32,928 nucleotides of DNA from a virus. Below the pieces are notes generated by a model that worked only from the letters and a program-made list of their open reading frames with translations, made no database searches and was not told the DNA's origin. Shown here piece after piece: positions 75-5,279 of this stretch (within the stretch, counting starts at the first letter, position 1; the number at the start of each line of letters is the position of its first letter). The position numbers and the translations under genes are program-made. The stretch lies in UHGV virus genome UHGV-0143082; one strand, written 5' to 3'.

Positions 75-3023
75 TTAGTGCTTCCCTTCTATTAAGTCTA
101 ACCTAGCTTTTATTCTTTCTATTTCTCTGCGCTGCCATGCCGCCTCGATATAGAATAAGAGATCAGGTCTGACCCCCCATCTAGATCCTGCTGGCGTTAT
201 TTCAACGCGCTCAATGATGTCTTCCATTACCATCACTGGATTATCATCCTCATCAACAATGATGCTCCCGTCATTATCAGTCAGCGGTATTTCCCTTTGG
301 CCAGTAATGACGTCATCATATACTGCGGGATAATCGTCATAGCAAAGAAAGGCATAGCGGCATGTTGTGCTTTCTTCTTCCATGAGTCCGTGAGAAATAA
401 GAACATCACGAAGTTGCTGCGCGATTACACCATGATGTATCCTCGCCCCTTCTTCCCCCTTTATAGCGACAGCGTTCAGCCATTTATAAGCGATATACCT
501 GACGTCACCCCAGGCATCCAGCAATGCTTCGTCAGGAGAGACCGCCTCTGTCTTTAATGTTCCGTCACTGGTAACCACAGGATTGGAGCCAAGATAAACT
601 GTCGAGAACCTGTTTCCCGGACCACCAAGAGCATTTACATTATCAAGATAAGGTTTAACATCTCCGTTCTCAAAAAGATGTTCGAGTGCGTTATATACCG
701 CGCGACGTGGAGTACTGCTTCCGGAACCATGCAACGTTATCATTGCGCCATCTGCTGAAGACGTTGTTTCACCGCCGCTAACGATTAATCTCTGAGCGGT
801 AACATCATCAGACGGTACTTTCTTCGCAATAATGGCGTAATTACCCTCAAGTTTGACTTCCGCGCGAACTTGTCCTGATGTACCTGCATGGACAGTCAGT
901 GACTGGACGGCAACATCATCTGTGAAATCAACGGGTACAGGAACCGTCCTCACGCCTGACGTCGACATAAAAGTAGGAAGCGTTCTGTTAGGAGTGGCTC
1001 CGTAGACAAAATCCCTTGAAACAAATTCTTCCTGTTTAATTTTCACCCTGAAACAATACAAATCAGCCGGGTGACCATCGTGAACATAAGGATATTTTCT
1101 GTTGTTATCCCCTATGCTCCATGGGTTTAGAAAGTCTTCCCCACCGAAAATGTAGTACAGCCAGTTGTCTTTGATACAAACTGAACCAACACCAACCGCA
1201 GAGTTAACTATTCCGCCCTGATAAATCTGATCAGTAACATTAACCCACTCTACATTATCCAGACTCCACTCATTGACGTTAACTCTGGTCATAAATGTTC
1301 TTGGATAATTTCCTGCATAACGGTTATCAGGTTCTCCTCCTTCCCACTCACCAAATGCGCGCTCACTGCCAAAAATAATCAGCTCATCGCCAACTTTGGC
1401 AAAAGGAAGGTTTGAGTGATGAACATTATTTGGGAAGCGAAGAGAATTCCATGATGTACCTAAATCAGAGCTTCTGTGCAATGAACTACCGGGTTGAGTA
1501 CTTAATGTCCCCCTGGTCGTCAGATACAGAATGCCATCATAATATTTTACACATGGCTCAGATGCATTCGCCTCATATTCTGCAGGTATGCGTCTGCGAA
1601 CAAAGCTACCAGGAGAACCGAAAGCATCAGAGAAATAGAGTATCCCAAGCTCGCGTGGACCAATATCACCATTATGGTAGCCAACAGCAAAACTGTTATC
1701 GCTAATCGTCGCAAAACTGTGAATCTCAGTAACAGGAGTGCTTCCGTCAACAAAAGAAGAAATAGTTCCAAGACTGGTTTTTCTCCATGGTGACGAGTGA
1801 AATGATGTACCAAAACTCCAGTATCTACCCTCGTTATTCTGATCCACATCCTGAGTATTTTGCGTCGTAACTGTAAAAGTATTTTTATCAATAACAGTAG
1901 TCACCGTCATATTCCCGGTAACACCTGTAACACCAGAGTTTGAGAAGTTGACAAAATCACCAGCAAATAATCCGTGATCAGTAATGCGAATATAAGCGAC
2001 TTGCTGATTTGCTGCTTTCGTTATACCACCATAAACGCGAAGGCTGCGACTCATTGGACGATCCCACAACTCTGCAACCTGCAGTTTATTTCCGCGCACG
2101 GTCCGCGTCTCAATTACAGCAAAAAGGCGATTTCTGACAACCCCCATACTCATGCAGTGATAGTTAACTGTGGGATAGTTTTCATGTAAATCTGTAAGCC
2201 ATTCCGGCGTTGTCCAGGTCTTCCCGTCATCTCCTGAGCGAACCCATGCAACATGGAGGTTATTTACACCATGGCGGTCTCCAGCCATAAAAGGCGCATA
2301 GATGACATTGTCATATACAAACGTTTTATCCTGCGTCCAGGCGTTGTACCACGGTGTATCTGTAATTTTAAATAACTCTCCTTGGATAAAATCTTCAGAA
2401 GCATAAAAAAGAGGCTGACCCGGTATTCTCTCAAATAAAAAACGAGCATTTTTAAATCGACTGACATCTGGAAGAGTTGATACTTTAAAAGTAAGCCCTC
2501 GCCCATCTATCTTTTCACCACCTGTTGCAACAGAAAGTAATTCTGATAGAGCTGATGTATCATCATGAACACCATCACCAATAGCCCCCCAACCTCTTAC
2601 ATCATAACTGTCTCTCCATCTTGCTATCTGAAGTTTTGGGTATTTATTCGCTCCATCTGGGTCTTCTAATTGCTGTCGTAACTGATCAGGATCATACTTC
2701 AGCACATTCGGAAAATAGAACTGCTGCACACCGTACGCATCATAAACAGCCATAGAATGGCCCTGTACAGTAACGAATTTGGCAATCTGTCCGTTATATA
2801 CCGGATATCCAGCAGCGTTAATGATGATTGGTTGCGATACAGGAACGTGAGAGCCGTCTTCGTTCTCCACATAAACCTGAATCTGGTTTTCAGGATTTAC
2901 AGGGTCAGTGTCAATTTTACCGATATAAATTTTACCATTGGCTACGGCTTTAAAAGAACGAGCCATAGTGAAGAGTTGCGAAGGCATACTCACTACAACA
3001 TTGGCATTTATTGAATCTGTCAT
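75..3023 (-). CDS. Tailspike protein: P22 gp9-like head-binding N-terminal domain fused to endosialidase-like body with C-terminal intramolecular chaperone domain
   Basis: 982 aa; N-terminal ~115 aa closely resemble P22 tailspike ([45 protein letters not shown]); two Asp-box motifs SGDDGKTW and SSDLGTSW; C-terminal region resembles the self-cleaving chaperone of endosialidases. Confidence 0.8.
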
Positions 3024-3123: not shown

Positions 3124-4059
3124 TCAGTAGTTATGTACTGAAGGAGGTAATTCTTTATTCTTAAGTCTCATCCATGCGGAAAGATTCGTTGGTCCGTCTG
3201 GCTCATTAATATCAACATCTCGTGTGTGGTTTATTAAAACGTCTCTCGCCATTCCGATAACATACGAGAACTCATGACCGTAGTCGTAGCATCTGCCGGA
3301 ATAGTTCGATTGAATTTGTTTTAATGCCGGATACAGTTCGCGGAATAATGCCTGTGAACGGTTGGCATAATCCCATAGCCATACAAGGCTGTTTGCTTCT
3401 TTTGCAGAAAGCTCGTTGACTTTCCTCTCTTGTTTGCCGATGAACTCTCCTTCAAGCGGAACGCGAGCTGCAAGTGACAGTGCTTCGGTAAACTGCTCCT
3501 CACTAATTTCTTTGTACGAACATCCAAAATGGGATTTCAGTGACGACCACATGGTGATCATCGCCTTAGCCTGTTTTTCTTTTGGCAGAGACTGACCGCG
3601 ACTCATGACGAGTTGTTTAATGGCTTCCTGCTGTTCAGTGGTGATTTTACCCTGCAACGCCTTTTTAGCTTTGCGTGGGTTAACTACATGGCCTTTAGTC
3701 CAGTAGTCATGCAGCACGCTAAAGCATTCCTCCTGGTACTGAATCAGTTTATCACGGATGTCAGCACGAACTTTCTCAGGGTTGATGCTGAACAGCCATC
3801 CATTTAACTTCTTCAAAGGAAGGCAGAGTAGCTTACGAAGCTTCCCATCAGCGGCAACCATGTTCATATGAACACAGTTGAATTTGCTAATCTGCTTCAT
3901 GAGTTTTGTTTGCTGCGTTGACCAGCTCATTCCAAGGTTTTCAACGATTGGCTTCATCGCAACATATGCAACTCCGGCAGCCATGGCGGTGATAATTTGC
4001 TGACCGTTGAATGGTACGTAAGAGGTGTTCACTGCTTCTAAAATTGCTATACTATTCAT
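3124..4059 (-). CDS. ant: Antirepressor Ant
   Basis: N-terminus [21 protein letters not shown] resembles P22 Ant; sits between arc and tailspike as in P22 immI. ORF-track start at 4089 is a TTG; the ATG at 4059 with upstream GGAGA is preferred. Confidence 0.75.
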
Positions 4060-4130
4060 GTTGGTTTTTCTCCAAGGATTTACCGACAACCGAAGCCCTG
4101 ACTGTTACCGCAGTTGGGGCTTCAACTTTT
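4060..4130 (+). ncRNA. Candidate sar-like antisense RNA covering the ant ribosome-binding site
   Basis: Extended -10 TGcTATACT at 4045-4053 on +; predicted start about 4060; hairpin 4092-4123 (gaagccc/gggcttc) followed by U-rich tract; arrangement mirrors P22 sar. Confidence 0.3.
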
Positions 4131-4346
4131 CACTTCTTTAAAGTGCCTACCTTCTACAGTTGCTCTGAGATAAAAATTCTTATCTTTACCGTTTAGTGCT
4201 TCCCAAGCATCAACAATGCACTTATTACAGATGTGGACTTCTCGATAACCAATAGCTTTCCTGTCAATATTAGTGAACATAACAGCTTCTTTATCTGTCA
4301 ATGTGGATGCATGACAGAAGTCGCAATCTATATAAGATACCTTCAT
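4122..4346 (-). CDS. Small zinc-ribbon-like protein of unknown function (two CxxC pairs)
   Basis: 74 aa; CDFC and CNKC motifs; ATG overlaps the arc stop (ATGA), suggesting translational coupling; not present between arc and ant in P22 as I recall. Confidence 0.5.
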   Translation of the reverse strand: MKVSYIDCDFCHASTLTDKEAVMFTNIDRKAIGYREVHICNKCIVDAWEALNGKDKNFYLRATVEGRHFKEVKS

Positions 4347-4501
4347 ACCGTTATCCCCTCTCTCTTCAGGCTGTCCAACACTCGCTTGTAAATCTCAGAG
4401 TTAACAGATCGCCCGTTCTCTTCAGCTACCTTGCGCACCAAATCCAATACTTCTTTAGGCCACCGCAAATTGAACTGAGGCATTTTTCTTGCACCTTGCA
4501 T
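4343..4501 (-). CDS. arc: Arc repressor (ribbon-helix-helix)
   Basis: Hand translation gives MQGARKMPQFNLRWPKEVLDLVRKVAEENGRSVNSEIYKRVLDSLKREGITV, near-identical in core to P22 Arc; below the 60-aa cutoff so absent from the ORF track; an upstream in-frame ATG at 4522 is an alternative start. Confidence 0.8.
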   Translation of the reverse strand: MQGARKMPQFNLRWPKEVLDLVRKVAEENGRSVNSEIYKRVLDSLKREGITV

Positions 4502-4522
4502 ATTCAACTCCATTTCACTCAT

Positions 4523-4594
4523 TGATAGTACCGTACTACTATTGAAAGCGTACTACTACCGTTCTAGCATGTCAACAAATAAAAGGAGAACGAC
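4523..4594. promoter_or_regulatory. Divergent Pant/Pmnt promoter-operator region
   Basis: Pmnt candidate TTGAAA(4542-4547)-17-TAGCAT(4565-4570) on +; perfect TTGACA on minus at 4570-4575; palindrome TAGTAccgTACTA at 4526-4538 and direct repeats of CGTACTACTA at 4532-4541 and 4550-4559. Confidence 0.6.
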
Positions 4595-4837
4595 GTGGCT
4601 AGAAATGATCCACAATTCAACGTAAGAATGCCTGATGAGATAAAACAGCAACTTACGCATATTGCTGCAACAAATCGCCGCTCGATAAACGCAGAGATTA
4701 TTTCAGCTATCGAACTATGGATAAAAATTCATAAAGGGCAGCTAATACCTTCAAGTAGTCGAATCCTGACAAAGTCTGAGCAAGAGGCGTTTGATGTAGC
4801 TATTGATGTGTTAAAACGTGTAAGAGATGGAGGATAA
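4595..4837 (+). CDS. mnt: Mnt repressor (Arc/MetJ ribbon-helix-helix family)
   Basis: 80 aa; MARNDPQFNVRMP resembles P22 Mnt N-terminus (MARDDPHFNFRMP); GTG start preceded by AAGGAGA; divergent from arc as in P22. Confidence 0.75.
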   Translation: MARNDPQFNVRMPDEIKQQLTHIAATNRRSINAEIISAIELWIKIHKGQLIPSSSRILTKSEQEAFDVAIDVLKRVRDGG

Positions 4838-4839
4838 CC

Positions 4840-5073
4840 ATGGAGCAACAACAAGGGTCGCCATTATCATTGATTATTATGGTGATTTTTTTCGTTTTTA
4901 TCTTTTTTATACCTGCGTTAAAAATATCCAAAAAGGCCGGTTTTGACTGGAAGATGGCTGTATGTTTAACAATCCCTGGCTTTAACGTGGTGGCGTGGCT
5001 CGCGCTTGCGTTCATGGATTGGCCAATTCACAAGTATCTACCAAAAGATGTGAATCGTAAGGATGCAAAATGA
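4840..5073 (+). CDS. Small hydrophobic membrane protein, unknown function
   Basis: 77 aa with two predicted TM segments; start 2 nt after the mnt stop; stop overlaps next ATG. Confidence 0.5.
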   Translation: MEQQQGSPLSLIIMVIFFVFIFFIPALKISKKAGFDWKMAVCLTIPGFNVVAWLALAFMDWPIHKYLPKDVNRKDAK

Positions 5074-5279
5074 ATAAAAAACAGCTTATTAAGTCAAAAA
5101 CGTCAAGCAAGGAAGAATTAGAGAAGGAGCTAAACTCCCTGAAATATGCTCTGTGTCTGGTTTACTCAAGACTGCCAATGGAAGATAAAAACGCCATTTA
5201 CAATGAAATGATTAGCAGCCTTGATTTTAACGATAGAGACCTAGCATCCCACCTCAACAGCTTCCGCGTCCCTGAGTAA
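5070..5279 (+). CDS. Hypothetical protein
   Basis: 69 aa; ATGA overlap with upstream ORF; AAGGA upstream; followed by the bidirectional terminator. Confidence 0.4.
   Translation: MNKKQLIKSKTSSKEELEKELNSLKYALCLVYSRLPMEDKNAIYNEMISSLDFNDRDLASHLNSFRVPE

Follow-up and report, generated by a model that had tools for sequence, protein, structure and literature searches.

A predicted natural specificity variant of the P22 Arc/Mnt control region in a P22-like prophage

The Arc and Mnt repressors of phage P22 are textbook models of beta-sheet DNA recognition, and Arc/Mnt hybrids engineered by Knight & Sauer in 1989 and by Raumann, Knight & Sauer in 1995 reportedly established that N-terminal residues set specificity. 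In the immunity-I (immI) region of P22, mnt and arc-ant diverge from overlapping promoters on opposite strands, Pmnt and Pant. One operator lies in the Pant spacer and the other, centred 28 bp away, covers the Pant start, and the sar antisense RNA and the antirepressor gene ant are found downstream. Here, we describe the corresponding region of UHGV virus genome UHGV-0143082, a 32,928-nt stretch of viral DNA that was analysed as a whole (the window), in which arc and an mnt-like gene diverge from a short control region around positions 4523-4594. This interval is probably the promoter-operator core of an immI module in a P22-like (Lederbergvirus-type) prophage of the Emek type. The assignment to P22-like immI follows from the neighbours, which comprise a P22-type tailspike, an antirepressor with both P22_AR domains and the sar RNA. 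We regard the locus as a natural variant, of predicted altered specificity, within a well-known system and not as a new kind of system.

As in the engineered hybrids, a few N-terminal residues on a common ribbon-helix-helix (RHH) scaffold would govern specificity at this locus: the Ala-Arg arm of Arc resembles that of Mnt, and the Gln-Phe-Asn-x-Arg strand of the Mnt-like protein resembles that of Arc. The hybrids are laboratory chimeras, whereas the window holds natural proteins with natural operators that are predicted to match them. The hybrid studies are cited in PMC3413123. A second parallel is provided by the heteroimmune classes of lambdoid immC, where the architecture is conserved while repressor recognition residues and operators diversify jointly into specificity types. 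Unlike immC, which relies on the helix-turn-helix proteins CI and Cro, the window region is a secondary immunity region with RHH proteins. Variability of the "ant moron" in P22-like phages is described in PMC2629481 and PMC8022706. The searched literature, which was thin in older subscription papers, yielded no account of these operators or of specificity classes of immI.

The control region compared with P22 immI

The P22 reference was the sequence of Sauer et al. 1983 (GenBank X01916 and BK000583), in which Pant, Pmnt, Oarc and Omnt are annotated. The window aligned with it without gaps over Pant and Pmnt, and the placements of both promoters and of two candidate operators, O1 and O2, follow from this alignment. 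On the arc-sense strand, the window reads TTGACA TGCTAGAACGGTAGTAG TACGCT TTCAATAGTAGTACGGTACTATCA and P22 reads TTGACA TGATAGAAGCACTCTAC TATATT CTCAATAGGTCCACGGTGGACCTG. The perfect -35 TTGACA facing arc and the TTGAAA-17-TAGCAT promoter facing mnt, both reported in a first-pass annotation of the window made from sequence alone, are present (Table 2). That annotation gave no -10 for the arc-facing promoter; it was identified here as TACGCT, with TACACT and TACATT as variants in relatives. All hexamers occupy positions identical to those in P22, and Pmnt and Pant have one base in common at each end, as they do in P22. In an alignment of seven diverse loci the core was also gap-free, and the columns without variation were those of the promoter hexamers and of the O1 centre, AC.GT.

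The size of the gap between the two genes required correction. The value of 72 bp given earlier presumes that arc begins at ATG 4522, where the longest arc open reading frame (ORF) opens, within the extended O1 site. The conserved arc start is ATG 4501, and the noncoding interval is therefore 4502-4594, 93 bp. ATG 4501 aligns to the N-terminus of P22 Arc (MQGARKMPQF vs MKGMSKMPQF) and was chosen as the arc start by the Emek annotators and in RefSeq alike. In place of the upstream ATG, locus L040 has ACG, and N7-type relatives do not retain this ATG.

The palindrome claimed for the gap, TAGTACCGTACTA, is a perfect 13-bp palindrome and forms the core of O1. In its extended form O1 is a 21-mer, TTGATAGTACCGTACTACTAT, that covers the predicted Pant start and sits just upstream of the Pmnt -35. 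O2, TACTACCGTTCTA, is an imperfect palindrome at the P22 Oarc position, inside the Pant spacer and overlapping the Pmnt spacer and -10. Its centre (4560) falls on Pant spacer position 10, as in P22, and lies 28 bp from the O1 centre (4532), which is also the P22 spacing. Counted from the start of mnt, O1 and O2 stand at -69 and -41; they fit the common pattern TAnnAC-S-GTnnTA and are identical at 11 of 13 positions. The 32.9-kb window has exactly two occurrences of the sequence pattern TANNACSGTNNTA, namely O1 and O2, with 0.10 expected; two occurrences were seen in none of 100 shuffles.

Two direct copies of CGTACTACTA had also been reported. Both are exact, and the window holds no further copies (0.02 expected; two copies in 0 of 100 shuffles). 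We asked whether this 17-bp-spaced repeat marks another, third operator or reflects binding to direct repeats, and rejected both: copy 2 has no partner half-site and overlaps the Pant -10 complement, the copies do not keep the 28-bp register of the operators, and their spacing would place them on different helix faces. The repeat is read as a probable by-product of alike half-site and flank composition (GTAC, TAC-TAC) and not as a separate binding unit. Of the repeats proposed as operators, the 13-bp O1/O2 pair is thus retained as predicted sites, and the direct repeat is dropped as a functional unit.

That the sites differ from the P22 arc and mnt operators was confirmed by comparison. Neither P22 Oarc, ATGATAGAAGCACTCTACTAT, nor Omnt, AGGTCCACGGTGGACCT, is present in the region: at the homologous position Oarc is matched at 12 of 21 bases, and a whole-window scan found no Omnt-like sequence in the control region, the best match (12/17) lying elsewhere. 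In addition to having both operator sequences replaced, the window departs from P22 in its Pant -10 (TACGCT vs TATATT), in an arc leader 7 bp longer, in an extra gene, orf74, between arc and ant, and in a Mnt-like protein with Gln6 and Val9 and without the C-terminal Repressor_Mnt domain.

Covariation of operators with repressor N-termini

The beta strand of the window Arc, P-Q-F-N-L-R-W, is identical to that of P22 Arc. The N-terminal arm is not of the P22 type, reading MQGARK vs MKGMSK in P22 (K2Q, M4A, S5R).

The Mnt-like protein and P22 Mnt share 45% identity across residues 1-40, where the BLAST alignment stops. The best PDB match of the Mnt-like protein is 1mnt (E 1.1e-5), and hhalign against Mnt gave a probability of 98.7% over columns 1-42 and no further. 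PF11423 (Repressor_Mnt, C-terminal tetramerisation) found no match in the protein, while the positive controls, P22 Mnt and class-C Mnt (see below), matched. By these comparisons, the "mnt" gene is homologous to Mnt in the RHH domain only, and its product may oligomerise differently from Mnt. A single-sequence AlphaFold model (predicted local distance difference test, pLDDT, 54) has a C-terminal helix at residues 60-78, at low confidence. The operator contacts of P22 Mnt, reported by Knight & Sauer to be Arg2, His6, Asn8 and Arg10, are kept in the Mnt-like protein at Arg2, Asn8 and Arg10, and His6 is replaced by Gln. Gln6 gives the protein the Gln-Phe-Asn-x-Arg strand of Arc. The N-terminal signature [AS]-R-x-x-P-Q-F-N-[VL]-R is found in both repressors of the window, as ARNDPQFNVR in the Mnt-like protein and ARKMPQFNLR in Arc. 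In the RefSeq Emek record NC_018275 and in the best PHROG match, phrog_2685, the Mnt-like repressor is called "partition protein ATPase". This label appears to be an annotation mistake, given that the product is an 80-amino-acid (aa) Arc-domain RHH protein.

Arc- and Mnt-based searches of IMG/VR yielded about 45 distinct control regions that share the promoter frame. A scan of genome contigs with Arc gave two loci, of which L005 alone was informative. An IMG/VR scan for the bare frame TTGACA-N17-TANNNT-N-TCAAT was not used; most among the matches listed looked unrelated. The control regions include the classes given in Table 1.

Table 1. Combinations of repressor N-termini and operator sequences in P22-like immI regions
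Class	Arc N-terminus	Mnt N-terminus	O2 (arc-sense)	O1
A (P22)	MKGMSK	ARDDPHFNFR	TAGAAGCACTCTA	GTCCAC-S-GTGGAC
B (window)	M(Q/I)GAR(K/N)	AR(N/D/T)DPQFNVR	TA(G)A AC-G-GT(A/G)(G/A)TA types	TA(G/T)(T/C)AC-C-GT(A/G)CTA
C	MQGARK	SREDPQFKLR	TATAAC-G-GTGATA	AACCAC-S-GTGGTT
D	MKGASK	P22-type	TAGGACCATGGTA or TAGGACGATGCTA	P22-type

Each operator followed the protein encoded on its far side. O1 adjoins arc yet tracks the Mnt type, with classes B and C having the same Arc arm and different O1 sequences; O2 adjoins mnt yet tracks the Arc arm, with classes A and D sharing Mnt and O1 and differing in O2. Within class B, O1 and O2 vary at the "nn" positions and in their flanks and nowhere else. The interleaved covariation would be explained if Mnt were functionally paired with O1 and Arc with O2. 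Mere linkage was considered as another explanation and is weakened, because each operator adjoins the gene that it does not track and linkage predicts the opposite pattern.

In the class D loci (L038/L039, L244 and L252), where arc lies on the plus strand at 1501 or 1201, the Arc arm has Ala in place of Met4. This suggests that class D is another Arc specificity type, reached with few arm changes.

The same type of site was present upstream of distant homologues. RHH proteins 37-67% identical to the Mnt-like protein are encoded on unrelated phage contigs of 28-70 kb. They have the N-terminus M-[AS]-R-x-[DS]-P-Q-F-N-[VL]-R and one to three upstream 13-bp sites with an AC-S-GT core, most of which fit the full TAnnAC-S-GTnnTA; several signature loci have exactly TAGTAC-S-GTACTA. 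Examples are TAGTACGGTACTA in L300, TAGTACCGTACTA in L302 and L304, TAGAACCGTTCTA in L307, and three sites in L306 (TATTACGGTACTA, TAGCACCGTACTA and TAGTACCGTACTA). Enrichment was calculated for 11 representatives with <80% identity and the N-terminus [AS]R..P[QV][FM]N[VL]R, over the region -120..-15. This region contained 22 AC-S-GT cores, or 19 per kb, compared to 0.54 per kb in the remainder of these loci, a 35-fold enrichment. All 11 non-redundant signature loci had one to three cores, usually two or three, within ~100 bp upstream. No AC-S-GT core was found at -120..-15 in ten relatives with other N-termini, which have other palindromes in the same frame.

A related pattern was observed for Arc. 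Class B and class C Arcs and the divergent Arc-like protein of L303 have Ala-Arg three residues ahead of the conserved Pro, which is the position of Ala1-Arg2 in Mnt. The O2 sites of Ala-Arg Arcs all have an AC-S-GT centre, resembling the Mnt operator, whereas those of Met/Ala-Ser Arcs are without it. In the window, too, the Ala4-Arg5 arm of Arc occurs together with an AC-S-GT operator centre.

These data also bear on the possibility that the repeats have no operator function and reflect chance or the base composition of AT-rich promoter DNA while the prophage module decays. Such decay would fit the weak Pant -10, the 17-bp-spaced repeat, which is out of operator register and partly a (TAC)n run, and the question raised by the Emek annotators whether ant is defective. 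It is opposed by the shuffle controls, by the strict conservation of TA, AC-S-GT and TA while the nn positions vary, and by the 35-fold enrichment in independent lineages. In addition, the ORFs are intact, the sar match reaches 97 bits, and an identical region is found in a phage that was isolated as a virion. We regard nonfunctional repeats as very improbable.

Related divergent RHH pairs of other phages, in the same overlapping promoter frame (170 nt upstream, RHH gene at ~601), were also seen in L335, L338, L343, L347 and L372, where the palindromes are different (GTAGCCAATGGCTAC, GTATCCGGTGGATAC, GTAGCCGATGGCTAC and ATTGATAGTCAAT). This implies that a wider set of immI-like specificity types exists. 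In the distant phage loci L301, L303 and L306, the partner RHH gene on the divergent side of the Mnt-like gene is followed by an ORF of 238-321 aa, which in L303 begins like the window Ant. The layout of an RHH pair with an antirepressor thus seems to reach beyond P22-like phages.

Repressor assignment and proposed mechanism

The whole is best explained by a P22-like frame in which O1 is bound mainly by the Mnt-like protein and O2 mainly by Arc, a reading to which we give a probability of roughly three in four. The altered Arc/Mnt specificity suggested by the first-pass annotation is well supported as a prediction. It is backed by collinearity with P22, the replaced operators, their covariation with the repressor N-termini and the palindromes of distant homologues. 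The specificity would be unlike that of P22 because the DNA-reading N-termini differ, with Gln6 for His6 in the Mnt-like protein and Ala4-Arg5 for Met4-Ser5 in Arc.

By homology to P22, we infer the following mechanism. Two sigma-70 promoters would occupy the same DNA on opposite strands, Pant driving arc-orf74-ant and Pmnt driving the mnt-like gene; because they overlap, RNA polymerase would use one at a time. Each operator is most likely bound by two RHH dimers. In the lysogen, Mnt-like protein made from Pmnt would sit mainly on O1, blocking Pant and keeping ant silent, and occupancy of O1 would end the promoter competition and favour Pmnt. After infection, Pant would fire and Arc would build up, bind mainly O2 and shut both promoters, while sar RNA would limit ant translation. 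The weak Pant -10 suggests that Pant is less powerful than its P22 counterpart.

Several observations weigh against this reading. The Pant -10, TACGCT, agrees with the consensus at only three of six positions (T1, A2 and T6), and for this reason a simple consensus promoter scan of the region did not call Pant. O2 is asymmetric, with the right half TACT instead of TAGA, a half that an Arc beta sheet docked in the manner of 1PAR would be expected to bind poorly. P22 Oarc fits O1 (15/21) better than O2 (12/21). An AC-S-GT centre does not invariably accompany an Arg placed three residues ahead of the Pro; this simple rule was rejected because L335, L338 and L343 have other palindromes. Many of the IMG/VR loci are close relatives, and the covariation therefore reflects few independent events, ~4-8 classes. 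No binding or expression data for this immI type were found in the searched literature. Finally, Arc and the Mnt-like protein share their candidate contacts (the Arg arm, Gln, Asn and Arg). Each may therefore recognise the other's operator, and an exclusive assignment of O1 to Mnt and O2 to Arc may be wrong.

The last point leads to a different account, in which both proteins read TAnnAC-S-GTnnTA, each binds O1 and O2, and the repressors differ in timing, oligomerisation or affinity instead of site choice. Both have A-R-x-x-P-Q-F-N-(L/V)-R, and O1 and O2, at 11 of 13 identical positions, both fit the family motif. The half-site TATTAC occurs in O1 in L048-type loci and in O2 in L054-type loci. 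Distant relatives have two or three such sites per protein, and the signature is present in both of the divergent RHH genes of L305. The class comparison is harder to reconcile with shared specificity: class C combines the same Arc arm with the distinct O1 of another Mnt (AACCAC-S-GTGGTT), which argues that Arc needs no O1. The almost invariant O2 of class B next to a varying O1 suggests different constraints on the two sites, and the flanks at positions 3-4 are systematically unlike between O1 and O2. We consider shared specificity possible but doubtful. A correspondingly tentative proposal is that convergence has given the two paralogous repressors a single recognition chemistry, an Arg arm with a Gln/Asn/Arg strand, and a single motif, and that they compete or cooperate at both sites, possibly in mixed assemblies. 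If so, a shared-operator circuit would replace the two repressors and two distinct operators of P22, and a natural RHH-operator series would be at hand for a simple code in which the arm Arg corresponds to the AC-S-GT centre and the strand residues to the outer TAnn.

The better fit of Oarc to O1 raises the reverse assignment, with Arc on O1 and the Mnt-like protein on O2. The 15/21 match of extended O1 is the best in the region and the joint best among ~66,000 21-mers of the window, and the Arc beta strand is unchanged. According to PMC12645479, Arc residues Gln9, Asn11 and Arg13 in 1PAR read six adjacent base pairs, the hexamers being AGTAGA and GATAGA. O1 has AGTAGT and GATAGT at these places, five of six bases being kept in each. 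This assignment is nevertheless unlikely in view of the classes, where O1 changes with the Mnt type at a constant Arc arm (class B vs C) and O2 changes with the Arc arm at a constant Mnt (class A vs D). Distant Mnt-like genes also keep TAGTAC-S-GTACTA though the beta strands of their divergent partners differ, and positional homology to P22 points the other way. We thus favour O1 as the main Mnt-like site and O2 as the main Arc site.

Module features, neighbouring genes and implications

The immI module is complete, with arc, the mnt-like gene, ant and sar RNA all found (Table 2). Salmonella phage vB_SemP_Emek, which was isolated as a virion, matches positions 4343-4840 with 100% identity, and prophages of three chicken E. 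coli genomes match positions 4100-5100 with 100% identity. The module is ordinary and apparently functional.

Table 2. Features of the immI module and its control region (positions in the window)
Feature	Position	Strand	Basis or remark
ant, antirepressor, regulated target	3124..4059	-	Pfam P22_AR_N and P22_AR_C; RefSeq coding-sequence limits
sar antisense RNA, part of immI module	4060..4127	+	Rfam RF00262, 97.4 bits, E 2.6e-21; full-length
orf74, 74 aa, CxxC...CxxC, between arc and ant in the Pant operon	4122..4346	-	
arc, 52 aa, MQGARKMPQFNLRWP...	4343..4501	-	Pfam Arc PF03869, 92 bits; P22 Arc alignment
arc Shine-Dalgarno GGAG, 6 nt before ATG 4501	4508..4511	-	aligns with P22 GAGG ahead of arc start
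O1 extended 21-mer, centre 4532, at P22 Omnt position	4522..4542	.	collinear P22 alignment
O1 core TAGTAC-C-GTACTA, predicted primary operator of the Mnt-like repressor	4526..4538	.	palindrome search; tracks Mnt type
Direct repeat copy 1, O1 centre, O1 right half and 3 flanking nt	4532..4541	+	
Pmnt -35 TTGAAA	4542..4547	+	consensus scan; homologous to P22 TTGAGA
Pant -10 TACGCT, 17 bp past -35	4547..4552	-	position homologous to P22 TATATT
Direct repeat copy 2, Pant -10 complement and O2 left edge	4549..4558	+	
O2 core TACTAC-C-GTTCTA (arc-sense TAGAAC-G-GTAGTA), predicted primary Arc operator	4554..4566	.	tracks Arc arm
Pmnt -10 TAGCAT, shares T4570 with Pant -35	4565..4570	+	consensus scan; homologous to P22 TATCAT
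Pant -35 TTGACA	4570..4575	-	homologous to annotated P22 arc/ant promoter; invariant in seven-locus alignment
mnt-like gene Shine-Dalgarno AGGAG, 6 nt before GTG 4595	4584..4588	+	sequence
mnt-like gene, 80 aa, GTG start, ARNDPQFNVRMP...	4595..4837	+	N-terminal RHH; Pfam Arc domain only

The full-length sar RNA opposes the junction of orf74 and ant and the ribosome-binding site of ant, and the P22-type antisense layer is therefore retained. The start of orf74 overlaps the arc stop (ATGA), and the Emek counterpart is orf73. Its CxxC...CxxC motif is possibly a zinc ribbon; no Pfam or PHROG family was found for orf74, the sole trace being a sub-threshold match to the ClpX zinc finger.

Downstream of the mnt-like gene, positions 4840-5279 (+) hold two small ORFs of 77 and 69 aa in the same operon. 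The 77-aa product falls in phrog_32536 (unknown function); it is hydrophobic, probably a membrane protein. In P22, the same region carries orf59a and sieA instead. The tailspike (75-3023, -; 982 aa) combines a P22 head-binding domain, a K1 endosialidase beta-propeller, tail-spike domains and an S74 chaperone. From this domain make-up, the prophage is a K1-capsule-specific, CUS-3-like podovirus in avian E. coli.

For such a prophage the practical stakes are modest. The natural diversity of P22 Arc and Mnt has hardly been used so far, and this locus and its 4-8 sister classes offer a series in which one promoter frame is kept while operators and repressor N-termini change jointly. Orthogonal small repressor-operator pairs for synthetic circuits could come from this set. 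The natural pairs are evolution-tested material for how RHH proteins read DNA, and they could predict which P22-like prophages cross-regulate each other's antirepressors, a form of secondary heteroimmunity.

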